Below are positions 1 to 64,000 of a stretch of DNA of 64,000 nt, piece after piece (the first letter of the stretch is position 1; every line of letters starts with the position of its first letter). The stretch covers positions 1 to 64,000 of the forward strand of contig CAVZQK010000020.1 of assembly GCA_963777355.1 (NCBI GenBank), in the 5' to 3' direction. A model generated the notes under the pieces. That model saw only the letters and a program-made list of their open reading frames with translations. It was not told where the DNA came from and searched no databases. The DNA comes from an uncultured Chloroflexia bacterium. Lineage in GTDB: Bacteria; Chloroflexota; Ktedonobacteria; Ktedonobacterales; Ktedonobacteraceae. The translations under genes and the position numbers were made by a program.

Positions 1-13
1 GGCAGGTGCCTGT

Positions 14-200
14 TACGGGCAGCAACAAAGACGCCGCCCCAGAGTGCTGGGATAGCCTGTAATCAGTTGTAACCAGGTGATAAGAAGTGGTACCAGGAAG
101 GAAAATTCCTGAATGAGTAACCTGGTACCACTTCTTATCACCTGGTTACAACAATACGGCTATCCAGCACTCTGGGGCGGCGTCTTTGTTGCTGCCGTAG
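14..200. repeat. ~85-bp near-perfect inverted repeat: upstream arm (14-98) is reverse complement of dedA codons 4-29 (122-200); start codon lies in the 23-nt loop
   Basis: two blocks of 31 and 30 nt are identical in reverse complement, separated by a short divergent centre; spacer contains the palindrome GGAAAATTCC. Confidence 0.8.
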
Positions 201-913
201 GGATTCCACTGCCCATCAGCCTCGTCTTTCTGGGTGCTGGAGCATTCGCTGCGTTAGGCGATTTCAATCTTTTCCTTTTAGCCCTTATCGGTATCAGCGC
301 TTCAGTGAGCGGGGATAGTGTCGGCTATCTGATCGGTAAGAAATGGGGGAGTAAAGTATTTTACTGGCTCAGCCAACAGCAGAGGATACGCTTTCTCTCC
401 CCCCAAAGGCTAGAAAAATCGCGAGCCTATTTCAGCAAACGAGGAGGATTAGCCGTCTTTTTCAGCCGCTTTCTTTTCGCAGGTCTGGGCGGTACCATCA
501 ACATCATAGCAGGAGCAGAGTTTTATCCCTATCCCCATTTCTTGCTGTATGACCTGGGCGGAGAGTGCCTGGGCGCGCTTATTCCCCTGATTCTCGGCTA
601 CACGTTCGGAGCAAGTTGGGAAGCAGTCGGAGATATCCTCTCTACCTCCTCGCTGGCCATAGTCGCACTCCTCTGCACCGCTTATCTCACCTGGCGCTTT
701 ATCAAACAGCTCCAACGCGTTCCGCGTACGCAGATAGAGGTGAAGCAGATTGCGAAGGCGAAAAAAAGCCAGGATGAGGCGGAGGATCTGCAAAATTCTG
801 CCACTTTAGGCGGAAGTCAAACGTATAGTAAAGAAACAAATGCTTATTTACAACCCAGCTTAGATAGTTTGCCAGGAAACTACACCAAAAACGGGCCGGG
901 GGGACTAGAATGA
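113..913 (+). CDS. DedA/VTT-family (SNARE-associated) inner-membrane protein
   Basis: 266 aa, multiple TM helices; G/P-rich re-entrant motif 'VGIPLPISLVFLGAGA' and 'FFSRFLFAGLGG' typical of DedA family; RBS-like AGGAAGG 10 nt upstream of ATG. Confidence 0.6.
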   Translation: MSNLVPLLITWLQQYGYPALWGGVFVAAVGIPLPISLVFLGAGAFAALGDFNLFLLALIGISASVSGDSVGYLIGKKWGSKVFYWLSQQQRIRFLSPQRLEKSRAYFSKRGGLAVFFSRFLFAGLGGTINIIAGAEFYPYPHFLLYDLGGECLGALIPLILGYTFGASWEAVGDILSTSSLAIVALLCTAYLTWRFIKQLQRVPRTQIEVKQIAKAKKSQDEAEDLQNSATLGGSQTYSKETNAYLQPSLDSLPGNYTKNGPGGLE

Positions 914-1122
914 AAGGGGGTCTTGCGTTATAATTGGAGTAGGAATAATTTCCGACCTGGCTATGTTTCTCTTAGTAGGAACATAAAGCACGTCATTGAT
1001 TTCCTCCCACTCGGCACTCGGACAGTACGGTCCGAAGAAGACTCGCATCCCTGAGTGTAGGACCAGACTGACAAATGACATATCTTGCTGCTTAGGATAT
1101 TACTTTTCATGGAGGGCGCACA

Positions 1123-2364
1123 ATGATTGACACGAAGCGTGCCATGACGGGAACAACGCTTACCTTGCCAAAGACAAAAGATGATACAGGCCTTGACCAG
1201 AAACCGTTTGATATTGTCGAACAGCTTCTGACAAAAGACCTTGATTATACACCAGAGGAAGAAGATGGGGAGGAGACCGCAAAAGATGAGCCGGAGCTTG
1301 ACGAAGACTTTAACACGATGGAGACCGGCCCATTGGAACTAGAAACAGGCCCACTGGAACTAGAGGAAATTTCTGATCTTCACGAAGATATTCCTGCCGA
1401 AACCCATGAGATGGAAACTGGCTCTGTTCTCCCCCTGCCAACCAGCACAACCGAGACGGAACCTGCGGCCAGGCGTACAGCTACTATGCGCCGTCGTCGC
1501 TCAGAAGATCAGGATGAAAATGCGGTCAACGCGGCTGACGCTGGCGAGTCTGATGCCGTCATGACGTACTTGCGTGAGATCGGACGCGTGCCGATGATTA
1601 CTCATGAGCGAGAGATTGAACTGGCGAAGCGCATTGAGAGCGGTGATCGCGATGCGATGAAGCAGTTTATTCTGGCAAACTTGCGGCTCGTAGTGAGTAT
1701 TGCGAAGCGCTATGTGGGACGTGGGTTGACGCTCCTCGATCTGATTCAAGAAGGAAATATTGGCCTTATTCGAGCTGTCCAGCGTTACGACTGGCGGCGC
1801 GGACACCGCTTTTCGACCCATGCGACCTGGTGGATTCGCCAGGCAATTAGCCGGGCCGTGGCGGACAAAGGGCGTACTATTCGCCTTCCCGTCTATGTAA
1901 ATACCGCTTTAAACCGTATTCGTCGTGAACGCCAACGCCTCTTACAAGAACTGGGACGCGAGCCTACAGAGCTAGAGCTGGCCGACGCAACGGGGCTTGA
2001 TCCCCTGCGCATGGTAGAATTGCAAGCGGCCCCCGGCGCTCCTGTCTCACTGGAACTGCCGGTTGGTGAAGATGAAGAGCAAGAACTCGGCGATGTCCTG
2101 GCTGACACCGAATCTGCCTCTCCCGAAGACCTGGCTACGACGCAGACGCTGAAAGATGAGGTCCAGCGCGTCCTCGAATTAGTGCTCACACCCCGTGAAC
2201 AACTGGTCTTGCAGTTGCGTTTTGGTCTGGGAAATGGACAGGCTCATCCGTTAGAGCAGGTCGGACGCGAACTTGGTATTACCCGTGAGCGCGTGCGCCA
2301 GATTGAAGCCGGAGCACTGGCCAAGCTACGCCAGCCACCCGTGCTTGATCGCTTGCGCGGCTAG
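1123..2364 (+). CDS. RNA polymerase sigma-70 family factor (RpoD/SigA-like, group 1/2) with acidic N-terminal extension
   Basis: region 2 '[54 protein letters not shown]', region 4 HTH '[18 protein letters not shown]'; N-terminus D/E-rich with tandem 'ETGPLELE' repeat. Confidence 0.85.
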
Positions 2365-2387
2365 GATTAGATAAACGTCACGAGATT

Positions 2388-2446
2388 CCAGAATCCCCGC
2401 AGGAGGGCGGCTTTGAGAAAGGCCTTCGTCCTGCGGGGATTCTGCG
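2388..2446 (+). other. stable stem-loop (14-bp perfect stem GAATCCCCGCAGGA/TCCTGCGGGGATTC, 23-nt loop) downstream of sigma factor gene; no U-tract
   Basis: perfect inverted repeat read directly; lacks T-run on either strand so not a canonical intrinsic terminator. Confidence 0.5.
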
Positions 2447-2467
2447 TGCTTAGACTGATTAAAGAAA

Positions 2468-3431
2468 GTGAAGGGGTGCAGTATTTTGTCAGAGAGACAA
2501 TTTGATTGCTTTGAGGCCTGGAGGTACTTGCCTATCACACGCTGGCATAACCAGGATTGCCTGCTTGGCTATGTTCCTCCAGTTCCAATGGATGGTATGA
2601 CGCCTCCTCACATTGATGATGTCTATATGCTGTGGTTCATTTGTCAGGGTAAGATAGATCTGATAATTAATGACGCCTGTTTTCCAGTACCCCCTGGCTC
2701 CCTTCTTTGGACTAGTCCTTCTCTTTTGCATGCCCATCGAGCTGCTGGAAATATTGAAGTACTCTGGTGCTTTTTCTCACCTTCTTTTGTTCAAGAAGTA
2801 TGGCAGGATATATGGCCGAGAATCAACTCCCCACATGCGGCTATTATACCAGCAGCAAAACCACTATACATAACACTTCTCCGTCTCATCCATGAAATCA
2901 AGTATACTGATAGAACAAGTAGTCACCTCTTCTCACTGCTCTCACATATAACACTAGTTGATATATTGCGCATGTTTTTTTCGCAGCAGAAAACTTATAA
3001 CCCGATTTCTACCTCAGAGGTTTCTCTCGGTACCTCTTCTATCAGCGAATCTATCGCTCAAGCCATCATACTATTTCGTTCAGAATGTTGTCGCGAAGAA
3101 ATTACTCCAAAACAGGCTGCTGAACAGGTTGGTCTAAGCCTCTTTCACTTCACCCGGCGCTTCAAACAGGAAGTTGGTATTGCGCCTGGTCATTACTTAC
3201 GTGAACTTCGCCTCAATCAAGCCTCTCATCTTCTACTCAGCACTCGCCTTCCTCTTGATGAGATTGCACAACGCATGTGGCTTGAGCTCTGCTCGTCATC
3301 TCTCTGATCTTTGTCATGCTAGATTTGGAAAAAGCCCAACACAGATACGTCATTATCCTGGAAATACTACGATTATAACTCAACTTCCAGAGCAAAAAAT
3401 CGTTGGTAATGAGCAAAGAAATGTGTTGTGA
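2468..3431 (+). CDS. AraC-family transcriptional regulator (cupin-like N-domain + AraC HTH), interrupted by a +1 frameshift near 3275
   Basis: C-terminal 'LSLFHFTRRFKQEVGIAPGHYLRELRLNQASHLLL...DEIAQR' continues in other frame as 'CGLSSARHLSDLCHARFGKSPTQIRHY' (second AraC helix-turn-helix); removing one base at ~3275 restores a single ORF. Confidence 0.7.
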
Positions 3432-3507
3432 GCCCTCACCAGATTTGATACATTTCCCCAGGAACAAGTAACTTACTCAATTTGTAATAATTCTAGAGGA
3501 GAGAAAT

Positions 3508-4568: not shown

Positions 4569-4602
4569 AAGGGACTTCGCAGATAAGAATAAAAGCTCAT
4601 GC

Positions 4603-10942: not shown

Positions 10943-11527
10943 ATGCCACTATCCATTGCCAACGCCACATTGCTCATCATTGATGTCCAGCAGGGATTCG
11001 ATGATCCATTCTGGGGGAGACGCAACAATCCCCAGGCCGAAACCAATATTGCCCGTTTACTTGCGATCTGGCGAGACCTGCACTGGCCTATTATCCATGT
11101 CCAGCATCTCTCGCGCCTTCCCAATTCCCCACTCTCTCCCAATAACAAAACAGGCTCTGACTTCAAAGAGGTCGTCCGCCCACTCCCCGGAGAAACCATT
11201 ATTACAAAACACGTAAATAGCGCCTTTATTGATACACCCCTGGAAGCACTTCTTCACGAGCAGCAGGCAACAACGCTGGTTATCGTCGGCTTGACCACAA
11301 ACCACTGCGTGGAAACGACGACGCGTATGGCTGGCAACCTGGGATTTACCGTCTATCTGGTCGCCGATGCAACTGCGACCTTTGATCGCGTGGGACCTGA
11401 CGGTATCCTGTATCGTGCAGAAGAGATTCAAGCAATCAGTCTGGCTAGCCTGCACGACGAATTTGCCCAGGTTGTCTCCACAGAAACGCTTCTCAATGCC
11501 GCTGACTACACGTTGCCTCATGTCTGA
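10943..11527 (+). CDS. isochorismatase-family cysteine hydrolase
   Basis: 'LLIIDVQQGF' N-terminal motif, 'LVIVGLTTNHCVETTTR' catalytic Cys region. Confidence 0.75.
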   Translation: MPLSIANATLLIIDVQQGFDDPFWGRRNNPQAETNIARLLAIWRDLHWPIIHVQHLSRLPNSPLSPNNKTGSDFKEVVRPLPGETIITKHVNSAFIDTPLEALLHEQQATTLVIVGLTTNHCVETTTRMAGNLGFTVYLVADATATFDRVGPDGILYRAEEIQAISLASLHDEFAQVVSTETLLNAADYTLPHV

Positions 11528-13398
11528 GGCAGATAGCCGGCAGGGAGATAAATTGCATATCCATCTCTCAACAGACGTAGATAATGCAGAGTATGTTGTT
11601 CGTTGTATTGCAAGAACGTCTCATCCTGGCTAGAGTGCAAAGGAAATACATAGAATGGTTGCGAGGCATGAGACACGGCGTCGGCATAGGGTTGATAGCG
11701 ATTTAAGCCAGGCTCAAGATGGCTTTGCAAAACACCGCACTTGATCTCTTCGAGACTCTGAAACGCGAGACGATCACAGGTCGAATAGTCGGTATACAGA
11801 TAGCGAGCATTCATCTCACGCAGATCAATCAGCAGCGCAAATTGCTGCACATTCTGCGCTTCTGTAGAGCGAAATTGCTGAAAGATATTCAAGGTTCCGA
11901 TGAGAAACGTTACCGCTATTACTAGCAGCAACAAGTAGCTTGCGCCAGCCCTCAGTAGAGCCTGCCATTTAAGAGGTGAAACCAGACTGGTCTTCTCCCA
12001 AAGAAAAGCCAGAAGCGCTGGATAGACAATGAGCAGGCCAATCAGGTAGCGGGAAGAGGTCCAGGGCGAGAGCTCAGCCGGAGGGAAAAGGGTGTAGAAA
12101 AACCAGGTAAGAGCGGCACTGAACAATACAGCCAGTCTGGCAACCTGGCGAATCGTTGCCTGGCGCGCTGAAAGAGGCTGAGCGGGGGCGGGAGCACGAT
12201 ACCACAATCTAGCAGAGACCTGAAGCGCAAAAGGTTTTGTGGATTCTTCCCAGCGTTTCCAGTAGAGCTGATAGGCCGCTACTAGCGCCGTTAGCAACAG
12301 CGTCAGATAGCCCAGTCCCCAGACGCCATGTATCAGAGTACAGCGCAAGGTCGGTTCATCCATCTGTTCCAATGGCAGGTTTGCATTCTGCTCTGGAACG
12401 GCACAGAGAACACTTCCACCTGTTATCACAGGTATACTCACCATAATTGAGCCAGCAAGCTGTCCAAGCAGACTTGCCTGGCGCACCGGCTCAGCCTCAC
12501 CTGCACTCATCATAGCGGTACTTCCTGGCCCGGCCACATCTCCTTTTGGTTGGGCAGAAACAGCACTGCCAAAGATCGAGGCCGGCGGTGGCTGAACCTC
12601 TGTAGCTTTATAGATGATCTGGGGAGCAAGACCGAGCAGAAAGCCAAAGACGAGCAGGGCAATCACCGACATACGTAGCTCACTGCGGCAAAAAATGAAC
12701 AGCAGCAAAGCCGTTGTGAGCACAAAGGGCAGAATCAGGGGATTGCTCCAGATGGCCAGACCGGCAACCAGACTCCAGGCAAGATAGACCAGGGAACGTC
12801 GCAGGCGTATATGCAGGAGGTGTGGTCCCTGACGAGACGTGAGAGCGAGCCAGGAGGCCAGCACAAGCAGAAGTGAGCCAAAAAAAACAATCTCCCCGTA
12901 GCCAGCATTTGCCGTCAACTCGTGCAAAAGCAACTCCGGAGAGCCCAGACTCAAGATACAGAGCGCTAGCAGCGCAGCTTTCTGCGAATATAAGAGACTG
13001 ATCAGTAGATAAGTAGAAAGCAGGAACAGGGCAAAGAGCAGAACCATACCCAGACGTAGGGCAAAAACGCCGGGACCAAAGACAGTAAACGAAAGCGCGG
13101 CAAGATAGGCTTCAATCGTACCCATATAGTCTTGCCCATAAAAGACCAGGGGATGTGCACCATTTTTTAGAATATGCAGGGCCATCAGGCCCATCGTCGC
13201 TTCGTCACTATCAAGCGCAGGCCAACCTTTTTGCACGATCAGAAGTCGCAGTAGCGAGGCCAGCAAGATAACAACAAACGCGGCAAACCCATAGATACGA
13301 AAATGGCAACGTATTAATAGAGCTTTAAGATAGATACTCAGACGAGATTTCCCCGCCAGTGACCGCTCAGGTACTGGCTTCAAACGTTGTGTATCCAA
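11518..13398 (-). CDS. GT39/GT83-like membrane glycosyltransferase (ArnT/PMT_2-type, dolichyl-phosphate-mannose mannosyltransferase-like)
   Basis: 626 aa polytopic membrane protein; N-terminal 'LDSDEATMGLMALHILKNGAHPLVFYGQDYMGTIEAYL' matches the ArnT/PMT DE-motif loop. Confidence 0.55.
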   Translation of the reverse strand: MDTQRLKPVPERSLAGKSRLSIYLKALLIRCHFRIYGFAAFVVILLASLLRLLIVQKGWPALDSDEATMGLMALHILKNGAHPLVFYGQDYMGTIEAYLAALSFTVFGPGVFALRLGMVLLFALFLLSTYLLISLLYSQKAALLALCILSLGSPELLLHELTANAGYGEIVFFGSLLLVLASWLALTSRQGPHLLHIRLRRSLVYLAWSLVAGLAIWSNPLILPFVLTTALLLFIFCRSELRMSVIALLVFGFLLGLAPQIIYKATEVQPPPASIFGSAVSAQPKGDVAGPGSTAMMSAGEAEPVRQASLLGQLAGSIMVSIPVITGGSVLCAVPEQNANLPLEQMDEPTLRCTLIHGVWGLGYLTLLLTALVAAYQLYWKRWEESTKPFALQVSARLWYRAPAPAQPLSARQATIRQVARLAVLFSAALTWFFYTLFPPAELSPWTSSRYLIGLLIVYPALLAFLWEKTSLVSPLKWQALLRAGASYLLLLVIAVTFLIGTLNIFQQFRSTEAQNVQQFALLIDLREMNARYLYTDYSTCDRLAFQSLEEIKCGVLQSHLEPGLNRYQPYADAVSHASQPFYVFPLHSSQDETFLQYNEQHTLHYLRLLRDGYAIYLPAGYLPQT

Positions 13399-13526: not shown

Positions 13527-16007
13527 TTACGCCGGTGTCTTATTCGATTTACCAAGATCTCGCTCTACATGGAGCACATCTTTTACACGTTCCAGGCGGG
13601 TAAAAAGTCGCTGGATCTGCTCAAGATCATATACCTCCACGGTTGTTGTCACCATTACCTGCTCACGACCATTGTGAGAATGTGAATTCACTGAGACCAG
13701 ATTAATATTACAGTCTGAGATGACAGTGGCAAGATCGCGAATCAGGCCGGGACGATCCTGTGCGGTAATGACTATAGGAGCAAGGTAGCGCGGCTGACTC
13801 ATGCCTACCCAGTTCACATGAATTAAACGTTCGCGGTCCCGCTCACGAAAACGAGCAATGTTCCGACAGTCCGAGCGATGGACGATCACACCTTTGCCGC
13901 GACTGATAAAACCGACGATCTCATCGCCCGGCAGGGGACAACAACAATTCGCCAGATGGGTCAAGAGTCCACTTACTCCTGCTACTTCCAAATCTGCCGA
14001 TATTGCCTGCTTGAGAGCTGGTGAAGGATGGACTATTTCGGTCTCTTCTTTGCTCTCTTTATGCTCTTTCGGACCTTCGCGCTGCTGCCAGTATTCAAAC
14101 AACTTGACAACTACAGCACGCGGACGCAGGTCGTCGGACCCGATGGCCGCCAGAATATCGGCGAGGTCATCCAGATGATATTCATGGCACAACCAGTTAG
14201 CGGCATCCTCGCTAATGTTCTCGGTGCTATTGCGTGAACCGGCATTCTTCAGCTCACGCTCCAGCCGCTCACGGCCAATCTGCACGTTAATATAGCGCTC
14301 GTGCATCTTCAGATAGCGGCGAATCTTGCTCTTTGCTGCCGCCGTGCGCGTAAAGCTGAGCCAGTCGCGGGTGGGATGGGCGGTACGACTCGTGACGATA
14401 TCAACTACTTCGCCATTTTTCAGCTCGTAGTCCAGAGGAACCATACGCGTGACCAGGCGATCTCCATCGCCACTTCCTACCTGGGAAATAATACGTGCGC
14501 CGGCACAGGCATCCCCAATCTTCGTATGGACGCGGTAGGCAAAATCAACCGGCGTGGAGCCTACGGGGAGATCCTTTACCTCGCCTTTCGGCGTGAAAAC
14601 AAAGATCTGCTCTTGAAAGAGATCATCTCTTACGACCTCAATAAATTCTGTCTCGCTATTGGTCGAGCGCAGCTCACGCTGCCATTCGGTCATCTGGCGC
14701 AACCAGGTAAGCAGCTCTTTGGCAGAGGCAGAGGCGGTATCCCCAACGTCTTTATAGTGCCAGTGCATCGCTACCCCATATTCGGCCAGTTCGTGCATTG
14801 CATGGGTGCGAATCTGTACCTCTACCAGTTGATTGTCCATGCAGAAGATCGTTGTATGGAGCGCCTGATAGCCGTTTGGCTTGGGATTGGCGATGAAATC
14901 TTTGATGCGGCCATCCTTTGGTCGCCAGAGACTATGCACATGACCGAGCGCAATATAACAATCGGAGGTCGTATCAACCAGGATGCGAAAGGCAATTAAA
15001 TCGTGAATCTGACTGATATCTGCGGCGGCTTTTAGCTCTTCAATTGTCGCAAATTCGCCGGTGGTACGCAGAATCTTCTTATAAAAACTATAGAGATGCT
15101 TGACCCGGCCAGAGATCTCCGCTTGCACATCTACCTGGGACATCTCCTGGCGCAGAATACCACAGACGCGCTCGACATAAGAGCGCCATTGCTTCCGCTC
15201 CAACTCGACAATCTCACGCACCCAGGCAAAGCTCTCCGGCTCCAGAATCTGAAATGCCAGATCATCCAGCTCGGATTCCACACGCGACATCCCCAGGCGA
15301 CCAGCCAACGGCGCATAGATCTCACGCGTCTCCAGGGCCATTGTCACCATCTCTTGCTGATCACCCTGATACTGGGGAGCACACATCATACGCACAGCAT
15401 GTAAACGATAGGCCAGCTTGAGCAGCACCACACGCGGATCTTCCGCCATCGCCACAAACATCTTCCGCACCGTCTCAGCCTGCTGGCGGCGCATCGCCTC
15501 CCGAATCCGTGGCTTTTTACTCTCGGCAGCGGAGCCACTCACCTCATCTCGCTCGTCACTGGACTTTTTTATCGCCGTCGTCTGCGAACCCTGAATAGCA
15601 AGTAAGGCTCCATCCGTAATACTCTGTTTTTTGCGCTCTAGAATATTCAGACGCCACATACTACCGACAACACGAGCCGTAGCAGCGCCAAGCACCTGCT
15701 CTACGACCTCTAACGCTAGCAATTCGGCATCTACCGCCTCAAAAACGAGTCCAGCGGCAATACCTATGGCATCAACATGCATCGTCTCGGCGAGAATAAT
15801 AGTGACCGCTAATGCATGATCCAGAGGGGGAAGAAGACGCTGGCCAGGCACGCCATGACACGTCTCTTGAGCCAGGCGATACGCGCGAATGACCTGGTTT
15901 ATCTCACTCTCATCCATGTATTCACGAATCAGAGTAAGAAGACTCTCCATCGCGCCTCCATATTCCTGTGGTACAGTCTGTTGTTCAACAAGCCTATCAT
16001 CAATCAT
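13527..16007 (-). CDS. long RelA/SpoT-homolog (p)ppGpp synthetase with degenerate HD hydrolase motif (HD->FE)
   Basis: HD-domain region 'LVFEAVDAE' instead of 'LLHDVVEDT'; intact synthetase motifs 'RPKDGRIKDF' and 'GYQALHT'; TGS and ACT regions present. Confidence 0.85.
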   Translation of the reverse strand: MIDDRLVEQQTVPQEYGGAMESLLTLIREYMDESEINQVIRAYRLAQETCHGVPGQRLLPPLDHALAVTIILAETMHVDAIGIAAGLVFEAVDAELLALEVVEQVLGAATARVVGSMWRLNILERKKQSITDGALLAIQGSQTTAIKKSSDERDEVSGSAAESKKPRIREAMRRQQAETVRKMFVAMAEDPRVVLLKLAYRLHAVRMMCAPQYQGDQQEMVTMALETREIYAPLAGRLGMSRVESELDDLAFQILEPESFAWVREIVELERKQWRSYVERVCGILRQEMSQVDVQAEISGRVKHLYSFYKKILRTTGEFATIEELKAAADISQIHDLIAFRILVDTTSDCYIALGHVHSLWRPKDGRIKDFIANPKPNGYQALHTTIFCMDNQLVEVQIRTHAMHELAEYGVAMHWHYKDVGDTASASAKELLTWLRQMTEWQRELRSTNSETEFIEVVRDDLFQEQIFVFTPKGEVKDLPVGSTPVDFAYRVHTKIGDACAGARIISQVGSGDGDRLVTRMVPLDYELKNGEVVDIVTSRTAHPTRDWLSFTRTAAAKSKIRRYLKMHERYINVQIGRERLERELKNAGSRNSTENISEDAANWLCHEYHLDDLADILAAIGSDDLRPRAVVVKLFEYWQQREGPKEHKESKEETEIVHPSPALKQAISADLEVAGVSGLLTHLANCCCPLPGDEIVGFISRGKGVIVHRSDCRNIARFRERDRERLIHVNWVGMSQPRYLAPIVITAQDRPGLIRDLATVISDCNINLVSVNSHSHNGREQVMVTTTVEVYDLEQIQRLFTRLERVKDVLHVERDLGKSNKTPA

Positions 16008-16453
16008 AGCATATATCGTTTATGGATATCTGGTCTATCCGGAAAGGAACTATCCAGTATGTGCGTTCCTTGACTAGAACGTGTCTTTAAGACCGCTCTC
16101 TGCATAAACGTTGCGTAAATGTTGTATAAACGCTCCACTCTTTCAGACACGCCCTAATATACGTTTTAAATTCTCTTTATTGAAACAACACTGGCAATGC
16201 TCGCTCATCCCGTCTCTCTACAGAGTATAACGTTTCTTTGCGATGTGCGAGTAAGCAGGACTAACAGAGTGCTTTCCTGTTTGCTTGATGAGCTACAAAG
16301 ACGTCCCACATGAACCTATAAAAAAACAGATTGTATTTATCTCTAACTCTAATATCGCATAAAATAGCCATAACAACACTGTTTTTATGCGCAAATTTTT
16401 GCGATGGCTTGAATTCTCCCTGGTGGAGGTACTTCTTTGTACCAGTTCCCCAA

Positions 16454-20265: not shown

Positions 20266-21459
<1,194 letters not shown>

Positions 21460-21498: not shown

Positions 21499-22325
21499 AT
21501 GGAGACAACACCCTATCGCTTTCTGACAACAGGCATACAGGATGCTGCAGTTAAATATGGCCATCGATGAGGCGATCCTGACGCATCATTTGCGCGACGA
21601 GGTCCCACCTACCTTGCGCGTCTTTCGCTGGTCCCAACCCGCTATCTCGCTGGGACGTTTCCAGAGCGTCGAACGCGAAATTGAGCAGGAGCTATGCACG
21701 CAGCAAGGCATCGCCCTGGTACAGGCGTCCAACTGGCGGCAGAGCCGTCTATCACCGCGATGAGTTCACCTATAGCATCGTCATCGGCAGACGCTATGGC
21801 ATACCTTCAGGCGTCGTAGCCGCTTATGCCTATCTCTCTCAAGGTATTCTGGCCGCCCTTCAGACGCTCGGTATACAAGCAGAGATCAGCGATGAACGTG
21901 TGAGCAAGCAGCCCTCAGCGGCCTGTTTTGCCTCCTCCACGCAGGCCGACCTGACGAGCGGCGGCTTCAAACTGGTTGGCAGCGCCCAGGTCTGGAAAGA
22001 TGATGCTCTTTTACAACAGGGCTCTCTGCCACTCGATGATCGCGCTGAAGAGTTTTTCGCCCTGCTGCGCTTTCCTTCCCCTGAAGCCCGACAAGAGGCG
22101 CTCAGACAGTATCGCGAGAAGACGACACCTCTCCATACCTTCTCTCCTGGCGCAAGCTGGGATGATGTGGCCTACGCTTTCCGTAGCGGATTTGCTCAGG
22201 CTTTCCAGCTGAATTTTGCACCCGGCGAACTCACCCCGTCAGAGTGGGATCTGGCCCGACAGCTTGTAGACGAAAAATATAGCAAGCTCAATTGGCGCAA
22301 AGAACGGATTTCTCTGCTAAAATAG
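21499..22325 (+). CDS. lipoate-protein ligase family protein (LplA/LipM-like BPL_LplA_LipB domain) with two frameshifts (~21551, ~21738)
   Basis: three frames give 'METTPYRFLTTGIQDAA', 'LNMAIDEAIL...GIALV', 'RRPTGGRAVYHRDE...FKLVGSAQ' (catalytic Lys motif). Confidence 0.7.
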
Positions 22326-24035: not shown

Positions 24036-26619
24036 TTAGATGAATGGGCTTTGCCACAATTTCCTCTCGCCTGTTGAGGATTGAAACATGAGGATTGAAA
24101 CAATCTTGATCGGTGCTTCCCCAAGCCCTTGCACATGAATGCGCTGCTCATCATCAGGAAGCATATCCAGCATATTATCGCTCCAGCTCAGCTCTTTATC
24201 GGCTGAGAAAAAAACCCCTTTGGCTGGACGCTTCACACGCACGCGTAAGATATCTTCTTCGTTGCGCTCGACAGTCAGATCGGGATCTTTCAAAGGCAGA
24301 TATTTTAAGGGTTCAGGCCAGTATGCAGCTCTTGCAAGGACCTCGTCATTTACCGAGTAAACGCATCCCAAAAATGATCTGCTCTCCCTGCCGCCCACTA
24401 CCAAAGTGCCCCAGTTCTGTAGCCTGGTTGGGTAAGAGCTCAACACGACGCAGCTCCTCCGCGACCAGTTTCCCATCCACTGTCCACGCACGCAGCTCCA
24501 TCTCAAACTGACGAGGTACGGTCAAGCCGTTCACTGCCCACGCTGCTACCCCCTGCTCGTCTTTTGCGAGACCGGCAACCAGGGGCGCGAGCTCTCGTTT
24601 GACGACATAATAGGCCGGTTTGGCACGCAGATAGTAATCAACCAGCGCCCAACTTGTCACAGGCCAGCAGTCATTCAATTGCCAGATGAGTGCTCCCGCT
24701 ACATACTCTCGCCCCTCACCCGACCAGCGCCTCCGCCAGCCGCGTATACCCGCACCCATTGCCTCTGCCTGCAAAAGCTGGAGTAATATAGGTGTATCCC
24801 TCCAGATCAGCAGGCATGCGGAAGTTCTCTACGACATATGCGGCTAATCGCGACGGACCACCAGCGCTTTTATTGTGATGGTCTAGCGTCCGGCTCTGGG
24901 CATAGCGCTCCTCCTCTGGCGTAAAAGGATTTCATCGTCCTTTTGTCAGGAAAGCCTTCCATGCCAAATTCGCTGACGAATTGCCCGGCAAACTTCGGGT
25001 AATCCTGGTACGGGACCATGCCATGCCAGATGGTCCAGATATGCTGGTCGCCAATCGTCAGGTTATTGGCATCGCTATCCGTACCCCCAAAGGGGCTGCT
25101 CGGCCAGTAGGGGCGCGTAGGATCATAGGAGCCACAAACATCTGGCAACACTTCTTCATAAAGAGCACGTGCCGGAAAAGCACTGGTTGCGAAATCTCCA
25201 GTAAAATCTGGGATCGTAGACATTGACAGACCTGGCAAGCAAGTAGTCTTCGTTATTTCCCGCCCAGATGACAATTGAGGGATGATGGCGTAGCCGTCTC
25301 ACATTGGCTATAGCTTCGGCCCGCACACTCGTCTGCATCCACTGGGGCGCGGGATAAAGTCCACAAGCAAACATAAAATCTTGCCAGACGAGTAGCCCCA
25401 GTTCGTCGCAGAGATCATAAAATACGTCTTCTTCATAGTATCCACCACCCCAGACCCGCAACATTGTCATGTTGCCCTCTGCCGCTAGCTCTAGCCAGCG
25501 ACGATACTTTTCAGCGGTAACACGCGGCCCAAATGAATCGGCAGGAATCCAGTTCGCCCCTCCGCAAAAAATTGGTGTGTTGTTGATCTCAAAAAAGAAT
25601 GTTTTCCCCGGTTCATCTAGCAGGGGACGCTGGATAAGTTGCAAACGGCGCAATCCTAAGCGCAGCTCCTGTCCTGTAAGCTCTCTCTCCCCATTACGCA
25701 AACTTACGACCAGGCGGTATAATGCCTGCTCCCCATACCCACGCGGCCACCAGAGCTGCGGTTGCTGAAGCTCGAATGTATGGGATAACGACGCAAGACT
25801 GGCTGGCAATATCGCTCGATCAACCAGCTTACCATCAGGACTATATACTTCCAGGTGCAGCGAGAGGCCGCTGGTGTGAATCTCACCATCCAGCAGTACC
25901 TGTACCGGCAGGAGTGCGCTCTCCAGATCTTCTACAACCTCAACTGGACAGTGGACCTCTACGATACGAGCGGCATAGGCCTCCAACCGCACTCCACGCC
26001 AGATACCAGCAGTTATTAGCGTCGGACCCCAATCCCAGCCATAATGATACTGCGCTTTCCTCACATAGAGACGACTACTATCTCCATTCCAGCAAGGATA
26101 AGATTTACCGGCCTCAGCCTCGCGCGTCTTGCCCTGCTGCCAGGCTGAGGCAAAATTTATGGTCAGCTCATTTTCTCCTGGCCGCAAAAGCCCGGTTACC
26201 TGCACTTGATGCGGCAGAAACATGTTCTCGCTTATGAGAATCTGCTGCTCATTCAACCATACGGTTGCAAACGTATCCAACCCATCAAAACAAAGGAGGA
26301 TATGTTCATCCAGGGAGAGGAAATCTTCTGGCAGGGTGAACTGGCAGCGGTATAGCCAGTCCTGCTCACCAACCCATTGCACCTCTTGTTCTTGTAATCC
26401 ATAAAATGGCTCAGGAATAAGCTCATGAGCCAGCAGATCCAGGTGCACACACCCAGGCACGCTGGCAGAGCGCCAATTCTCAGAGAATGCCAGATCATCC
26501 TTCAGGGAAAGAGCTGGAGTACGCTGTTTAAATTGCCAATGCTCGCTAAGATGCAGAATTTTCATCAGTGTGAGTTCAACGCCTTTCGTTTTAACAGCCG
26601 TGCTCTCACAATATACCAT
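24036..26619 (-). pseudogene. GH2 beta-mannosidase, fragmented into at least 4 ORFs by frameshifts
   Basis: N-terminal fragment has GH2 sugar-binding/TIM-barrel motifs incl. 'QPQLWWPRGYGEQALYRL' (beta-mannosidase signature); successive C-terminal fragments in other frames; 14-bp perfect tandem duplication at 24075-24102 inside coding sequence. Confidence 0.7.
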
Positions 26620-26699
26620 TGTTTTGACGAAGCTCGCATCTCATCGTTCCCTATTACCAGCTAACACCGACTCCAACACATTGCCAGGGGCAAAAGGGT

Positions 26700-36285: not shown

Positions 36286-36922
36286 TTATCCTTGAACACA
36301 GGCTTGTATATAACGTCTGGCCAGATCGGTAAGCGCCGACCAGTCTTTTCTCGCCACCAGTTCTTTCCCCACCAGTTGGCTACCAATAGCAACCGTATAA
36401 GCACCAGCCGCCAGAAAAGCCGCACAGTTCTCCAGATTGACACCGCCCGTAGGCACAAGAGGAATATTCGGCAGAGGGGCCAGCACATCTTTAATATAGC
36501 CAGGACCCAACTGCCCGGCAGGAAATACCTTTACCAGAGATGCCCCCTGACTCCAGGCTGCTAAAATCTCTGTCGGCGTAAAAGCGCCACAGACAACAGG
36601 AATATCATCCTTGCGTCCAACACGAATTACCTCAGGCAGCAGAGCAGGTGTCACCAGAAATTGTGCGCCCCCGCGAATCGATTCCTCAGCCATCGCTTCA
36701 TTCAGGACAGTGCCAGCACCTATCAACAACGTGTCAGCAAACTCTTTTCGCGCCTTCTCAATCACACTGATTGCCTGAGAATTTGTCAGCGTAAACTCCA
36801 ACACCGGTAATTCCACCTGCGAGCAGGGCCTCACAGAGATTCAGACTGTGCGCCAGTGACTCCAGGCGGATAATCGCAATCGGGTTGCGCGGTTGCAATC
36901 CAGAAACATTTTTCTCTACCAT
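36286..36922 (-). CDS. eda: KDPG/KHG aldolase with single-base frameshift near 36838
   Basis: 'GAGTVLN', 'VKVFPA', 'PTGGV' motifs; N-terminal 30 aa 'MVEKNVSGLQPRNPIAIIRLESLAHSLNLCEALLAGGI' is in a different frame and rejoins as 'PVLEFTLT' if one A is removed from ATTACCGG. Confidence 0.75.
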
Positions 36923-39961: not shown

Positions 39962-41102
39962 ATGAATATTCTTTTTTCTTCATCTGACTCTGATGAAACT
40001 GAACCACGCTTGCCTAGTGTCTTGCTAAATGAACACGATCCCACTGAAAAAGTTCCGCTGGTAGAACTTACTCAGAGAGACCCCGATCTGCCAGAGGATA
40101 ATTTTGCTTCGGCGGCTCATTTCCAGGCCGCCTTATCACCAGATATATCTACTATGCCAACATTACCAGAAATCATTCCAGATATTTCTATGCAGCCAAC
40201 ATTGGCAGGTGCCTATCCGGATATTTCTACGCTACCAACATCGGCAGGTGCCTATCCAAATCTTCCAGCGAAACTCTCTGCACCAGTTATATCAACCATG
40301 TTCAGTGGCGCACCACCCCCGCCTCAACCACTATCCGAAGGTCCATTTGAGTGGTATAAGCACCAGGACCCAGGTAAAAGACTGTGGCTTGGCGGTGGTG
40401 CAATAGCGCTCTTATTAACCATCATTGGCTATCTTTTTTTGCTAGTAGCCCTTAATCACGTTCCTGCCCCGACTATCGTCACACCCTATGCAACTCCAGC
40501 TATAACATCAATAAAACATCTAACATCTACACCAACTAGCCCTTTTATTGGACTTATTCCTGTTACTCCTACACAAGGACCAGCGAACACCTCAATACCC
40601 ACGCAGATCACAACACCATCGGCCAATCCTACCCAACCACCCTCTAATCCTACTCAACCACCTACTCATCCTACTCCAACCGCCCTCTGATCCTACCCAA
40701 CCACCTTCTGATCCTACCCAACCACCTTCTGAGCCTACCCAACCGCCTACTCACTCTACTCATCCGAAACCACCTGAGCCTACCCAACCACCCGACCTAC
40801 CCAGCCACCTGAGCCTACTCAGCCGCCCGCAAACCGACACCTACACCGATACCTACGCCTATTCCGACACCTACACCGGTCACAGGCATTAATGGTAATC
40901 CCTGGGGCTATGATTTTAATCCCGGAATGTACATTACCCATCCGCCTCCGGCATTTTGTTCTTACTTTTCCTGCACAAGAGACTTCTATTTCGGGCATGG
41001 CTACGTTGTGGAATGTACCGATAGCAAATTTAGCCTCTGGGGCGGTTCAAGATTTGCCTGCTTCTGGGATGGAGGAGTTGTGACTCCCCTCTATTCACAT
41101 TA
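39962..41102 (+). CDS. hypothetical single-pass membrane protein with Pro/Thr-rich 'PTQPPS' repeat linker and conserved Cys-containing C-terminal domain; two frameshifts inside the repeat (~40685, ~40795)
   Basis: three consecutive frames encode N-terminal+TM, (PTQPPS)n repeats, then 'NGNPWGYDFNPGMYITHPPPAFCSYFSCTRDFYFGHGYVVECTDSKFSLWGGSRFACFWDGG'. Confidence 0.5.
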
Positions 41103-41571: not shown

Positions 41572-42310
41572 GAGAATGCTCCAGGCGATCCTGGAAGTAC
41601 GCTACATAGGCTAATCGATGGGCTGCACTATCCACAAAATGGGGGGTATTCTCTTCAAGCCAGCTATCCGGAATCAGATGAACGATATCTTGCAGGACAG
41701 AAAGGGATAAACGGCTCTTGAGCAGCGTATCAACCTCCTCCAGCGCACTCGCTACAGGCAGCAGGACATGGCCTTTAATCGAAGTAAACGAGATACGGCT
41801 GCGCTCAAGGTAGTCGCCCTCAATATGATGAAAATAGAGAGCAGCCCCCTGATCGATGAGCAGCAGACGATTATGCCACCAGAGCATGTTCGTATTGCGA
41901 GGTGTCCGATCAACATTGGTGACAAAGGCGTCAAACCAGACAATGGACGAGGCTAGCAGAGGATCAAGCTTATAGGCATCCAGAGCATCAAAAGCTATCG
42001 CACCGGGAAGGTAGTCTAGCGCCAGGTTGAGACCAGCGCTCGCCTTAATCAATGCCTGAATCTCAAAATCTGGTTCAGAACGTCCAAGCAGAGGATCAAG
42101 CTCGATAAAGACTATCTCAGGCACCGGCAGATCCAGGGCACGCGCCAGTTCACCGGCAACCAGCTCGGCAATCAACGCCTTCGGCCCCTGGCCCGCTCCG
42201 CGAAATTTTAGCACATACAGCCCATCATCATCTGCCTCAACGATAGCCGGAAGCGACCCCCCCTCACGAAGAGGCGTCACATAGCGTGTAGCAGTAAGTG
42301 TTCTCAGCAT
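41525..42310 (-). CDS. HipA-like C-terminal kinase-domain protein (no HipA N-terminal domain)
   Basis: 'VLKFRGAGQGPKA' P-loop-like, 'DAFVTNVDRTPRNTNMLWW' catalytic-loop-like and 'IDQG' DFG-like motif. Confidence 0.5.
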   Translation of the reverse strand: MLRTLTATRYVTPLREGGSLPAIVEADDDGLYVLKFRGAGQGPKALIAELVAGELARALDLPVPEIVFIELDPLLGRSEPDFEIQALIKASAGLNLALDYLPGAIAFDALDAYKLDPLLASSIVWFDAFVTNVDRTPRNTNMLWWHNRLLLIDQGAALYFHHIEGDYLERSRISFTSIKGHVLLPVASALEEVDTLLKSRLSLSVLQDIVHLIPDSWLEENTPHFVDSAAHRLAYVAYFQDRLEHSHVFVEEAVHARAQLI

Positions 42311-52966: not shown

Positions 52967-52983
52967 TGAGGAGAAAACGCCTT

Positions 52984-53763: not shown

Positions 53764-53785
53764 TGCCTGAGCAGAGAGAGCCATC

Positions 53786-57998: not shown

Positions 57999-58773
57999 AT
58001 GACAGAATACCAGTATATCCTCGTCGAACGTGCTGAAAATGTTGGCATCGTGACGCTCAATCGCCCTAAAGAACTTAATGCTTTGAGTATGGCGCTGATA
58101 AAAGAGCTGGCCGACGCGCTGGAGGATTTTGATCGCGATGATGCGGTCCATTGTATTATTATCACGGGTTCAGGTGAAAAGGCGTTTGCCGCGGGAGCGG
58201 ATATCAAGGAGATGTCGGGAAAACTCCGATAGAGATGTTTATGGGCGACGGCGAGGCCTGGGGACGTATCCGCCGCCTCCATACACCCCTGATTGCCGCT
58301 GTGAATGGTTACGCTTTGGGCGGCGGCTGTGAACTCGCTCTGCATTGCGATATGATTGTGGCCTCAGAAAACGCTCGCTTTGGCCAGCCTGAAATACTCA
58401 TCGGCATAATTCCGGGCGCTGGTGGTACCCAAAGACTTGCCCGCGTCCTCGGTAAATATCGCACAATGGAGATGGTCCTCACAGGCGCACAGGTCACAGC
58501 CCAGGAACTCGCAAGCCTGGGACTCGTCAACCGCGTCGTCCCCAAAGGCGAACACCTGCACGAAGCCCTGAAACTTGCGCAAACAGTAGCGCCCAGGCCC
58601 CCCTCGCCGCCCGCATGGCCAAAGAGGCTGTCCTCGCCGCCTTTGAAACCTCCCTCGAAGAGGGACTGGAGGCCGAGCGCAAAAACTTCTTCCTGCTCTT
58701 CTCTACCGAAGATATGCGCGAAGGGATGCGAGCCTTTATCGAAAAACGCAAACCCGACTTCAAAGGCAAATAA
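57999..58773 (+). CDS. enoyl-CoA hydratase/isomerase (crotonase) with two frameshifts (~58225, ~58590)
   Basis: '[18 protein letters not shown]', '[50 protein letters not shown]', then '[17 protein letters not shown]' in third frame. Confidence 0.75.
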
Positions 58774-60525: not shown

Positions 60526-61320
60526 TTAACGGCCCATGCGGCTATCTCGCCAGCGTACCGCTCGTTTTACTGCCTCGAAATTCCAGGGCGCACCCATACC
60601 AACAATCAGATGCGTAAGACCTTGCCTCAGCAACACATCCCGTTGTTCATCGGTGGCATCAATATTGGTAGTGGTCGAGCGCTCGATTTCAGCGGGATTG
60701 CGTCCAACCTCTTTACACCAGTTATCAAGGACCTCCATTTTGTGCCGCAAGGTTCCCGGATCACCGAAGCCATGCCATATATCGGCATACTGAGCGGTCA
60801 GGCGCAGCGTCTTTTTCTCGCCGCCACCACCTATGAGTATCGGGATCTTGTGGAGTGGTCTCGGCACATCCGTCTCCCAGCGATGTTTGATGATTGGTAA
60901 GGCAGCATCTAACGCAGCCAGACGACTGCCAGGGGTGCCAAGATCGTAGTTATACTCTTCATAGTCACGCTCAAACCAGCCTGCACCAATACCCAGCATC
61001 GCCCGACCATTGCTGATATGGTCAAGTGTCTTCGCCATATCGGCGAGCAATGAGGGATTGCGGTACGTATTACACGTCACCAACGTGCCAATCTGAGCCC
61101 GCGAAGTGAGCGTCGCTATCGCGGTCAGCAGCGTCCACCCCTCGAAATGATTGCCCTGCGGATCTCCATAAAGCGGAAAGAAATGGTCCCAGTTCCAGAT
61201 AGTATCAACGCCGAGATCCTCAACGCGCCGTACAGCATCTGCATACTCTTGATAACTCACATGTTGCTGACGAAGTTGTACTCCAACGCGGATTGCGTGT
61301 GTTGTCTGTTGTTGTACCAT
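60526..61320 (-). CDS. LLM-class (luciferase-like) F420/flavin-dependent oxidoreductase
   Basis: 'IRVGVQL', 'GRAMLGIGAGW', 'IPILIGGGGEKKTLRLTAQYADIW' LLM motifs. Confidence 0.7.
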   Translation of the reverse strand: MVQQQTTHAIRVGVQLRQQHVSYQEYADAVRRVEDLGVDTIWNWDHFFPLYGDPQGNHFEGWTLLTAIATLTSRAQIGTLVTCNTYRNPSLLADMAKTLDHISNGRAMLGIGAGWFERDYEEYNYDLGTPGSRLAALDAALPIIKHRWETDVPRPLHKIPILIGGGGEKKTLRLTAQYADIWHGFGDPGTLRHKMEVLDNWCKEVGRNPAEIERSTTTNIDATDEQRDVLLRQGLTHLIVGMGAPWNFEAVKRAVRWRDSRMGR

Positions 61321-61635
61321 CAGTATCTACCTTTCATAATCAGCTAATCCTGTTTTGCTCTTCCTCTAATAGTTCAGGTACACGTATATTGCTTGCTCAT
61401 GCAAGCAATATATCATACGTAACCAGAATTTACAAGGCGTTGCTCAGGAGATTTCGTCGGAACCTGAATGTTGAGCAGAGCATGAGTGGACTATCTCAAA
61501 ACCGTTCGTTTCTTGCGACAACAAAGACATCTTCCTGCCACATCAGGGCCTCTTTGTGCTCTTGACACCAAAGAGGAGAAGCGCCACAATCTGCTCAGGC
61601 AGCTGATCATCAAGCGGTTGAGCGGTAGCAATCGT

Positions 61636-62178
61636 TCAAACCAGGATTGGTCCAATCGCAGCTTCCATCAAAAGACGCGCATCAATCTCCTCGGGAAGTT
61701 CACCACGGTCTTTTGCTCGCTGAATGAGCACTTCGGCGCTGTTGAAGCTATCTTCCCAATAGACCCGGCGCACCTCTGCTAGCTCCGGTTGCGGATAGTG
61801 ACCCACCACAATCTGGTCAACGACTTTTCCCATAGGGGTCTGGATGCGTGTGATAATCCCACGGAGCAACTCTAGCATATCGGTTTGCAAGGTTCCGGTA
61901 TCCGGTATGGGCGTCTCGGTGGCGCTGTAGTCTTGCAACGCCTCCGCCACAATGGCCGCTTTGGTTCCCCATCGGCGAAACAAGGTGACTTCGTTGACCC
62001 CAGCCACCGAGGCGATCTCTTTCGTCGTCATCGCCTCATAGCCGCGCTGACTCAACAGATCAAGCGTGGCCGCAAGCACTGCCGCTCGCAGGCCATCCCC
62101 TCGTTTCCCGACAGGTGCCTCGGAACGAGGGGATGGGGGCTTTTCTCTGGCTGATGGTTCATCTCTTCTTTTTTTCAT
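61636..62178 (-). CDS. TetR-family transcriptional regulator
   Basis: 'LDLLSQRGYEAMTTKEIASVAGVNEVTLFRRWGTKAAIV' TetR HTH. Confidence 0.8.
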   Translation of the reverse strand: MKKRRDEPSAREKPPSPRSEAPVGKRGDGLRAAVLAATLDLLSQRGYEAMTTKEIASVAGVNEVTLFRRWGTKAAIVAEALQDYSATETPIPDTGTLQTDMLELLRGIITRIQTPMGKVVDQIVVGHYPQPELAEVRRVYWEDSFNSAEVLIQRAKDRGELPEEIDARLLMEAAIGPILV

Positions 62179-62207
62179 TCTCAGAGTATACCAGGGGTTC
62201 TTTAAGG

Positions 62208-62272
62208 GAGCAAGTACCACTTGCATTCTCACAGAATGGCTGGTATACTATGAATGCAAGTACCACTTGCTC
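62208..62272. promoter_or_regulatory. two copies of palindromic box GCAAGTACCACTTGC (62210-62224, 62256-62270) in inverted arrangement in tetR/amidohydrolase divergent intergenic region: putative TetR operators
   Basis: read directly; classic TetR operator placement. Confidence 0.6.
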
Positions 62273-62294
62273 TCATCAAGGAAGGAGAAAACTG

Positions 62295-63294
62295 ATGAAG
62301 ATCATTACGCTGGAAGAGCATTTTGAAATAGCTGAAATCAAAAAAGCCGTGGCCAGGTTTCTTCCTGATTCCCGTGAACAATTCTATCAACCACCCACCA
62401 AGCAACTTGAAGATCTGGGGGTTCATCGTCTGGCAGAGATGGATGCCATGGGCATTGATGTCCAGGTCCTCTCTCATACCTCGTCGGGGATACCATCGAT
62501 CCCGGCAGCAGAGGCGGTTTCGCTGGCGCGAGAGATCAACGACCGGCTCGCGGCAGTCATTCGTACTCATCCTGACCGATTTGTGGGCCTTGCGACCCTG
62601 CCCACGCCTGATCCAGAAGCTGCCGCTGCCGAATTGGAGAGGTCGGTGAACACTCTGGGTTTCAGGGGCGCGATAATTCATGGACAGACCAATGGTCGTT
62701 TTCTGGACGATCCCGCGTTTCGCCCCATACTCGCAATGGCAGCCATACTTGATGTTCCCATTTACCTGCATCCTGCGCCCCCGCCCAAAGCTGTAGTGGA
62801 AGCCTACTATGCTGGCTTTGGGCCTGCCGTCAGTGGAAGCTTTGCCACCTTTGGGTGGGGGTGGCACCTGGATACCGGTATTCATGCGCTACGCATGGTT
62901 CTGGGAGGCGTCTTCGATCTTTATCCAGGTCTGCAAATCATTCTCGGTCACTGGGGAGAAATGATACCCTTCTACCTGGCTCGTTTTGCCGAGGCTCTCA
63001 CCCCGGCAGCCAGCCAGTTACAGCGGCCTGTGGCGGACTACTTCGTTCAGCAAATGTATGTCACTCCCAGCGGGATGTTTACGCTTCCCCCATTCTTGCT
63101 GGCCATGCAGGTAGTGGGAGCTGAGCGCATTCTGTATTCCGTTGATTATCCCTTTCACTTTCAGGAGGAGGCAAGCCAGAGCGTTTCTAGAGCATGCCCC
63201 AATCAGTCCTGCTGACAAAGAAAAAATTGCCCACAGCAACGTCGAAGGGCTGCTCAAACTTTCTTCGCTGTATCATAGCGATGTCGACAAATGA
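62295..63294 (+). CDS. amidohydrolase-2 family protein (ACMSD-like metal-dependent decarboxylase/hydrolase) with C-terminal frameshift (~63190)
   Basis: 'MKIITLEEHF', 'DAMGIDVQVLS', 'SVDYPFHF', then 'ADKEKIAHSNVEGLLKL' in next frame; GAAGGAG RBS. Confidence 0.7.
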
Positions 63295-63457
63295 CATCAC
63301 TATTTCGTCTTGCCTCTCTTTCCAAGAGAGTTCTTATAGGAGATTTTTCTATGCGTATCTTTGTTACTGGTGCGACCAGACACACCGGCACTTTCGTCGT
63401 AGCTGAGTCGCTTACTACTGGCCTTGATGAGGGCCGCTACTTTGAAGGGAAAGCGTC

Positions 63458-64000
63458 ATGAAACAGCAGCAACATCAGATAGAAACGATCGGCACTTCGC
63501 AGGTCGAGCGTGCTCTCGTTCTCAGCGGCGGCGGTCCGGTTGGATACGCCTGGATGGCGGGTCTGGTCGGAGGTCTGGCCGCTCATGATGTTGACCTTGA
63601 CCGTGCGGAGCTCATCGTTGGAACCTCCGCAGGTTCCATTGTCGGTGCCCAACTTGCTCTCGGTCTGGATGTCGCGGCCCTCTGGCCGAAACGAACCGGC
63701 ACTCCGAGCTAAACATCTACTTGTCCGCTGGCCCCGGACTCGGAAACCAGCTCGTCGAATGGGTCAACGCCGCCCACGCCGCAAATCCCGACGAGGCGCG
63801 AGCAGCAATCGGCCGCAAAGCATTGGCGGCAGCGACCATTGGTGAAGACGCCTTCGTGGCAATGTCAGGGTTCTCGGTGCTCGCAGGACGGGAATGGCCG
63901 CCAACGTTTCGCGCTACAGCGGTCAGCACGACCACCGGCCAACTGGTCACATGGTCCAGGAACTCCCACGTTGACCTTGCAAGAGCGCTCGCTGCGAGTT
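63458..64000 (+). CDS. patatin-like phospholipase (partial; runs off window; frameshift ~63700)
   Basis: 'LVLSGGGPVGYAWMAGL' oxyanion and 'GTSAGSIVGA' GxSxG motifs. Confidence 0.65.

Follow-up and report, generated by a model that had tools for sequence, protein, structure and literature searches.

Small indels in ten genes of the window

We examined the first 64 kb (here called the window) of contig CAVZQK010000020.1, from an uncultured bacterium of the Ktedonobacteraceae; the window has ~52% GC and contains no N. Scattered through it are conserved genes that are split by small insertions and deletions, with protein homology resuming seamlessly in an adjacent frame. We found 16–17 such indels and one nonsense codon, in 10 of the ~55 genes of the window (Table 1), a density of ~0.27 frameshifts per kb. 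An earlier note on this DNA had listed at least 15 seamless frameshifts and called them single-base events. That count is borne out, every listed site lying within ~30 nt of where the note had put it, and so is the size of all events but one: the amidohydrolase break, noted at ~63190, is a 2-nt loss. The "three or more" breaks it gave for the glycoside hydrolase (GH2) gene come to four, all insertions, and the two in a Pro/Thr-rich protein to two or three.

Table 1. Genes with frame breaks or a premature stop, followed by other features of the window (+1, insertion; -1, loss)
Feature	Position	Strand	Frame breaks or content
AraC-family regulator	2468..3431	+	one +1 frameshift at ~3270-3280, between 'IAQR' and 'CGLSSARH' of the second helix-turn-helix (HTH)
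tgt (queuine tRNA-ribosyltransferase)	20278..21459	+	+1 at 20906; -1 at 21055-21058, beside GGGG
lplA (lipoate-protein ligase)	21499..22325	+	+1 at 21546-21547; +1 at 21721-21723
GH2 beta-mannosidase-like gene	24036..26619	-	four +1: 25209-25213, 24922, 24780-24782, 24349-24352
eda (KDPG/KHG aldolase)	36286..36922	-	+1 at 36804-36807 (CCGG)
Membrane protein, Pro/Thr-rich linker and conserved C-terminal domain	39962..41100	+	2-3 frame changes, ~40680-40889
Enoyl-CoA hydratase (crotonase)	57999..58773	+	-1 at 58215-58220; -1 at 58589-58591
TetR-family regulator	61543..62226	-	CGA>TGA (Arg in relatives), premature stop at 61636-61638
Amidohydrolase (Amidohydro_2)	62295..63294	+	2-nt loss at 63168-63170
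Patatin-like phospholipase	63458..64000, runs off the window	+	-1 (G) at 63682
Two tandem RelA/SpoT (RSH) paralogues	13527-18928	-	824-826 aa
Direct tandem repeat	26698-26838		67 bp, two copies
IscB-like element	36951-38542	-	intact 433-aa ORF with RRXRR and HNH domains
HEARO RNA (Rfam RF02033)	38271-38542	-	94 bits
HipA_2-like kinase and DUF3037 protein	41143-42310	-	overlapping gene pair
Divergent amidohydrolase tract	62400-62900		~500 bp

Frame continuity was followed in a Pfam scan of stop-to-stop open reading frames (ORFs), tracing one domain over adjacent frames, and the indels were placed and typed by DNA alignment to relatives and frameshift-aware rescoring. Syntenic relatives were reached through homologues of the intact neighbouring genes: two loci from Joint Genome Institute sample 3300066018 at ~85% amino-acid identity (L081 for tgt and lplA, L082 for eda), L093–L095 for the crotonase, and L089–L092 for the block of tetR, amidohydrolase and patatin genes. 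In all of these fetched relatives the orthologues of the disrupted genes are single intact ORFs. More widely, a scan of genomes with the first RSH gene gave 80 loci, all in Ktedonobacteria (Chloroflexota), with a top protein identity of 85%. We found no second assembly of the same strain: an identical response-regulator protein led only to relatives at 83–90% DNA identity. A metagenome scan with the CoA-transferase subunit gave only relatives at 66% identity or less.

Exact copies of the intact RSH2, LarA and enolase proteins are present, unannotated, in the public protein collection and come from one 259,207-bp NCBI contig. The same contig has contributed fragments of the split genes (tgt, 225 aa; GH2, 487 aa; patatin, 84 aa; Pro/Thr-rich protein, 242 aa), and the frameshifts therefore belong to the deposited sequence. 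A homology-free codon-usage hidden Markov model, in which frame breaks appear as separate segments and which is too weak to call frame switches directly, gave no further breaks in the long genes. Counts of stops inside tblastn high-scoring segment pairs were swamped by shadow ORFs and were of use for the tetR nonsense codon only.

Evidence for the individual lesions

The tgt gene illustrates the pattern. Its Pfam TGT profile is spread over three frames (profile positions 3–193, 190–245, and 245–355), and both sites were set by rescoring and by aligning the DNA with that of L081, whose 394-aa orthologue is intact. For the adjacent lplA gene, tblastn matches fall in three frames with contiguous query coordinates, and the breaks were located by DNA alignment to the 275-aa L081 orthologue and by rescoring. 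The Pfam domains of the GH2 gene are scattered over its fragments; an 803-aa homologue (L006) runs seamlessly by tblastn through frames -2, -3, -1, -2, and -3, and at every one of the four sites taking one base out scores better than putting two bases in. In eda, the Pfam Aldolase profile covers only positions 34–195 of 196 (ORF 36289–36840), the first 33 positions being absent from that ORF. Compared with the L082 orthologue, residues 1–39 lie in frame -1 and residues 40–208 in frame -2; DNA alignment and rescoring were used to place the extra base.

The ECH_1 profile of the crotonase is likewise divided among three frames (2–64, 79–195, and 188–251). Both losses, placed by alignment and rescoring, remove one C of a CC present in the aligned relatives (L093, L094, and L095). 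Once corrected, the protein has 257 aa, a 100% length match to 258-aa homologues with identity of up to 87%; more than 120 homologues are at least 78% identical to it.

Two genes were read with less help from relatives. The helix-turn-helix region of the AraC-family regulator extends over two frames in a three-frame translation (Pfam HTH_18, 2–53 of 80, in ORF 2459–3304; HTH_AraC, 17–42 of 42, in ORF 3174–3431); the direction of its break was taken from canonical HTH spacing alone. In the Pro/Thr-rich membrane protein, a three-frame reading puts the first frame change before 40688 and the others between ~40790 and 40889. At least two events are needed, since the frame-2 ORF ends at 40687 and that of frame 1 does not open before 40813; repeat continuity alone gives their positions and directions. 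The third-frame tail of this protein (40813–41100, plus strand) is a genuine domain, conserved at the C-terminus and with 789 homologues. In almost all of these, the domain ('NPWGYDF...GYVVEC...GG...PLY(S/A)H') forms the extreme C-terminus and follows a transmembrane segment and a Pro/Thr linker. It has no Pfam match and appears to be an uncharacterised domain family.

The tetR, amidohydrolase, and patatin genes adjoin one another at the end of the window, where four independent assemblies could be compared. DNA identity over 61.5–64 kb is 91–94% overall (~98% in tetR and ~95% in patatin), and the only indels relative to the four assemblies are those at 63168 and 63682, save for a gap that L089 alone shows at its end of the alignment. 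All four assemblies are intact at both sites, so these lesions are not common to the relatives. For the amidohydrolase, aligned with L089, L090, and L092 (333-aa gene intact in each) and rescored, the relatives read CAGGAGG[C]AGG[A]CAAGCC and the window CAGGAGGAGGCAAGCC. In patatin, CTCGTGG in the relatives corresponds to CTCTGG; the gene is intact at 304 aa in all of L089–L092, and its 84-aa fragment clusters at 90% identity with 304-aa proteins. The tetR stop is the sole nonsense lesion that we found and did not figure among the sites listed earlier. Pfam TetR_C_11 is matched over only 1–91 of 113 positions, to the end of the ORF, and the 29 codons past the stop are identical in protein to those of the aligned relatives (L089 and L090).

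Within the amidohydrolase gene, a tract (Table 1) with a pN/pS of 0.17 is ~25% divergent from L089 and L090, its flanks being far closer; it looks like a recombination tract.

Three further candidates were rejected. An apparent frame switch at ~1046 lies upstream of the sigma-70 gene and reflects a conserved 5′ leader that the stop-to-stop ORFs take in; the gene runs from the ATG at 1123 with all its regions there. A zinc-finger break at ~19750 is spurious, the 104-aa ORF matching its L081 orthologue over the full length at 95%, and a luciferase-like gene (60526–61320) that had seemed broken is intact. The PfkB gene (32284–33168) is intact also.

Programmed recoding, in which ribosomal frameshifting or transcriptional slippage would restore the frames in vivo, has nothing specific to recommend it beyond the homology that carries on in the adjacent frame. 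It is effectively refuted by the single-frame orthologues in every relative examined. Shifts occur in both directions, up to four per gene, and we saw no slippery heptamers or long A/T runs in the site contexts, which were inspected by eye only. We regard this explanation as next to impossible.

Spectrum and spacing of the lesions

The indel sites show no enrichment for homopolymers: the longest run touched averages 2.46 nt, compared with 2.19 nt at random positions (P = 0.2). Runs of 5 nt or more contain none of the sites. Elsewhere the window holds 27 runs of 6–9 nt, including some in RSH2, LarA, enolase, and the ATPase, without any frame break in the ORFs checked. The GGGG run that the earlier note gave as its example of a homopolymer site is touched by the tgt deletion only. 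Error concentrated in homopolymers, the signature of R9 or 454 sequencing, is not what we see; the spectrum is compatible with the random residual error of R10-type or PacBio CLR data. The indels fit neither the classic 454/R9 error nor replication slippage, and they fit the random residue of low-coverage long reads. Taken by itself, the homopolymer comparison that the earlier note proposed does not part error from decay.

Insertions make up 10 of the 15 events whose direction was resolved. Indels in bacteria arise at about one-fifth of the substitution rate, mostly in simple repeats, with deletions outnumbering insertions two- to threefold and single-base events centred on homopolymers (PMC5854121). 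If insertions formed 25–33% of events, as in bacterial mutation-accumulation figures, the excess seen here would have P = 0.0008–0.008. The window indels therefore lack both the repeat association and the deletion bias of the natural spectrum. Insertions and deletions are also distributed unevenly, at 10:1 below 37 kb and 0:4 above 58 kb (P = 0.004, Fisher's test).

The lesions are strongly clustered. Ten of the 16 gaps between them are shorter than 1 kb (P = 0.00015). Other stretches, of 17.6, 11.6, and 17.4 kb, are clean. This supports the earlier remark that the pattern is not uniform and that long ORFs stay intact, although the unit is not simply the gene: the patches are shorter than 1 kb and cross gene borders. 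Four events fall within 815 bp spanning the 3′ half of tgt and the 5′ part of lplA, and four within ~860 bp of the 2.5-kb GH2 gene. Repeats were rejected as the cause of the patches, the only internal repeats being the RSH paralogues and the 67-bp tandem.

These features bear on a reading of the window as genuine and very recent pseudogenisation, in which dispensable genes would be lost through real small indels and further lesions would accumulate neutrally in genes already dead. Several observations agree with it. The lesions are grouped in a subset of genes and spare conserved long ones; the adjacent tetR, amidohydrolase, and patatin genes are all damaged, one by a nonsense substitution; and the GH2 and Pro/Thr-rich genes are accessory, being missing from the closest syntenic relatives, L081 and L082. 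Frameshifts are also the commonest real pseudogenising lesion: a large survey of MTBC (Mycobacterium tuberculosis complex) pseudogenes gave 66.5% frameshifts, 32% incomplete genes, and 16% internal stops, with multiple events in ~10% (PMC9676053). However, 6 of the 10 affected genes here carry at least two lesions, a share of 60% that differs markedly from the MTBC figure (P = 1.7e-4), yet those checked have no added stops and no raised dN/dS (see below). Indels of 1–2 nt that avoid repeats and are rich in insertions are the reverse of the measured bacterial spectra, and patches that take in parts of genes and run across gene borders also count against decay.

Nor is the mixed spectrum expected of decay present, with 16–17 small indels to one nonsense codon. 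About 3.6% of substitutions in the affected genes would make stops, so 3–6 nonsense codons are expected where one is observed. The overall probability of this deficit ranges from 0.15 to 0.009, and taken alone it is no more than suggestive. No large deletion or insertion sequence (IS) disruption was noticed in the genes examined or aligned to relatives, in a window that was not screened systematically for them. Moreover, tgt and crotonase are highly conserved across the class. Ktedonobacteria are free-living bacteria with large genomes, and we know of no mass pseudogenisation in such a setting, which also counts against decay. On balance we consider recent pseudogenisation unlikely.

Selection on the corrected genes

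No internal stops remain after correction in the five genes checked (tgt, lplA, eda, crotonase, and patatin). Measured against the nearest orthologue, the corrected dN/dS is 0.065–0.12 over tgt, lplA, and eda (0.065 for tgt and 0.099 for lplA), in the same range as that of intact neighbouring genes (0.015–0.117). The corrected patatin gene has a dN/dS of 0.315, relative to a much closer relative and on 25 differences. The dN/dS result excludes old decay only, since most genes have reached saturation in dS relative to their nearest relatives.

Frame breaks in related assemblies

As a control, rsh1, rsh2, tgt, lplA, hbpS, and two genes close by were checked for seamless frame switches across 81 Ktedonobacteria loci. 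Such switches occur in 6 of 14 loci from Nanopore-only Microflora Danica metagenome-assembled genomes (MAGs), as against none in the remaining 67 (P = 9e-6, Fisher's test), which are from isolates or other, mostly short-read, MAGs and in which the lone apparent match was an N gap. The six loci (L077, L012, L073, L019, L074, and L005) have their switches in rsh1, rsh2, tgt, and hbpS, and one of them, L077, with 5 breaks in 8.2 kb, is denser than the window. The breaks run in both directions, strike even RelA/SpoT genes, and lie at apparently ordinary positions, as judged from printed contexts without statistics.

The Microflora Danica MAGs were assembled from Nanopore reads only, with Flye and one round of Medaka, and without short reads (PMC12313526). 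Nanopore consensus at low coverage is known to yield genes split by frameshifts, and R10-type chemistry calls homopolymers well up to ~10 nt (PMC9262707), which is consistent with the intact long runs in the window. Among the related loci, then, frame breaks track assembly technology and not lineage. The confinement of breaks in rsh and tgt to the Nanopore-only MAGs among the relatives counts against decay. This control is the strongest circumstantial evidence for an artefact. The public proteins of the Microflora Danica MAGs that bear breaks are probably fragmented in the same manner.

Other features of the window

The intact neighbourhood includes several elements that can be compared with relatives. 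The two RSH paralogues share ~43% identity with each other and are kept in tandem in L081. The earlier note had also named a GT39 glycosyltransferase among its intact long ORFs, a label that we could not confirm: no GT39/PMT Pfam match was found among the ORFs scanned, and the 626-aa ORF at 11518–13398 is without a Pfam match. The GH2 gene, missing from the closest syntenic relative L081, occupies the same position in four Dictyobacter loci (L006, L007, L014, and L025), and on this distribution behaves as an accessory gene. The 67-bp repeat, with copies 96% identical, lies just upstream of its start.

Between eda and pfkB, inside no gene, is an IscB-like element whose HEARO RNA stands directly upstream of the RRXRR/HNH ORF on the same strand. 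The element is missing in L082, where eda and pfkB are 373 bp apart; judging from this comparison, the IscB/omega-RNA element looks like a recent insertion. The pair encoding the HipA_2-like kinase and the DUF3037 protein is kept in L082.

Interpretation

We favour the reading that the frameshifts are residual indel errors of a long-read assembly and not a biological feature, at a probability of roughly 0.85. The earlier note named assembly error and gene decay and did not decide between them; the evidence speaks for error and against decay. In the organism itself the genes for tgt, lplA, GH2, eda, crotonase, amidohydrolase, patatin, araC, and the Pro/Thr-rich protein are most probably intact. 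Nanopore, or another single-molecule method, is most likely the platform behind the contig, and a 259-kb contig of an uncultured soil bacterium fits a long-read MAG. The contig would be a long-read consensus, clean wherever support sufficed. In patches of ~0.15–0.9 kb the consensus would be poorly supported or unpolished, perhaps through low local coverage, strain mixing, or a failed or unpolished window, and one-base insertions and losses would survive there at ~0.5% per base, which is near the indel rate of raw reads. Gene callers would then cut each affected gene into 2–5 fragments.

Several points weigh against an explanation by consensus error. The platform of the contig is itself an inference. 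Clustering and the survival of long genes (the two RSH genes, enolase, sigma-70, and the 896-aa ATPase) would also be expected if selection spared needed genes. The tetR nonsense codon lies beside two frameshifted genes, and in the region from tetR to patatin neutral evolution is compatible with the number of window-specific substitutions per lesion. If substitutions outnumber indels five to one, a single nonsense codon or none is not improbable (P = 0.15). Finally, the change from insertions to deletions along the window is not obviously predicted by an error model. It is not directly predicted by decay either; if the indels are errors, a difference in the reads behind the consensus may account for it.

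The tetR stop raises the further possibility of a mixture, with mostly consensus errors and a few real strain-specific mutations, for which the candidates are the tetR stop itself and changes in the length of the Pro/Thr linker. The tetR lesion is a C-to-T transition at a CpG, the commonest natural substitution; the Pro/Thr linker is a DNA repeat, in which slippage is plausible; and the tetR-patatin block adjoins mobile-element genes in L092 and holds the recombinant tract. Yet low-coverage long-read consensus yields substitution errors too, the stop shares a 2.1-kb stretch with the indels at 63168 and 63682, lying ~1.5 kb upstream of them, and the codons past it are unchanged in protein. A mixture seems to us very unlikely.

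Should the indels be real, a reading that we judge quite unlikely, they would describe a free-living Ktedonobacterium in which one-base gains and losses come in "showers" shorter than 1 kb and fall outside repeats. Their source might be error-prone repair of double-strand breaks, by non-homologous end joining or a translesion polymerase, and ~18% of the genes in the region would have been knocked out too fast for any substitution signal. The window would then represent an unusual case of clustered indel mutagenesis in a free-living bacterium.

If the frameshifts are instead consensus errors, as we favour, they matter mostly as quality control. Ten of the ~55 genes would be miscalled, either as pseudogenes or as 2–5 short "hypothetical" fragments, and wrong conclusions would follow on queuosine modification, lipoylation, the KDPG aldolase step, beta-oxidation, and mannoside use. 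Fragments are already in public protein collections as singleton clusters, where they inflate apparent novelty. The absence of a homopolymer link does not clear a long-read assembly; patchy indels in random contexts are the residual error mode to watch for.

Comparison with known systems

Programmed frameshifting, as in prfB, dnaX, and IS transposases, likewise places one protein over two frames. The window differs in that no shift is conserved in orthologues, no slippery motif is seen by eye, and several shifts in both directions occur per gene. Reductive decay, as in Mycobacterium leprae, the M. tuberculosis complex, or host-restricted Salmonella and Shigella, resembles the window more closely: many genes are broken regionally, frameshifts are the commonest lesion, and conserved long genes are spared. 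In the window, however, the genes examined show no mix of lesion types, no rise in dN/dS, and no link to repeats; the bias is toward insertions and not deletions, 60% of affected genes are hit more than once as against ~10%, and the lesions are absent from four closely related assemblies.

The indel artefacts of long reads (Nanopore or PacBio CLR) offer the closest likeness. They too are single-base indels that split conserved genes into adjacent-frame fragments, in long contigs of uncultured soil organisms, and the density of the window is within the range of its Nanopore-only relatives (such as L077, above). In their classic form these artefacts are centred on homopolymers (PMC9262707), whereas in the window the long homopolymers bring no frame break and the indels, tightly grouped, have ordinary sequence around them. 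This points to coverage that was low locally, or to windows left unpolished. For long-read indel errors in general, the IDEEL test provides a measure, and tools such as proovframe or short-read polishing a repair.

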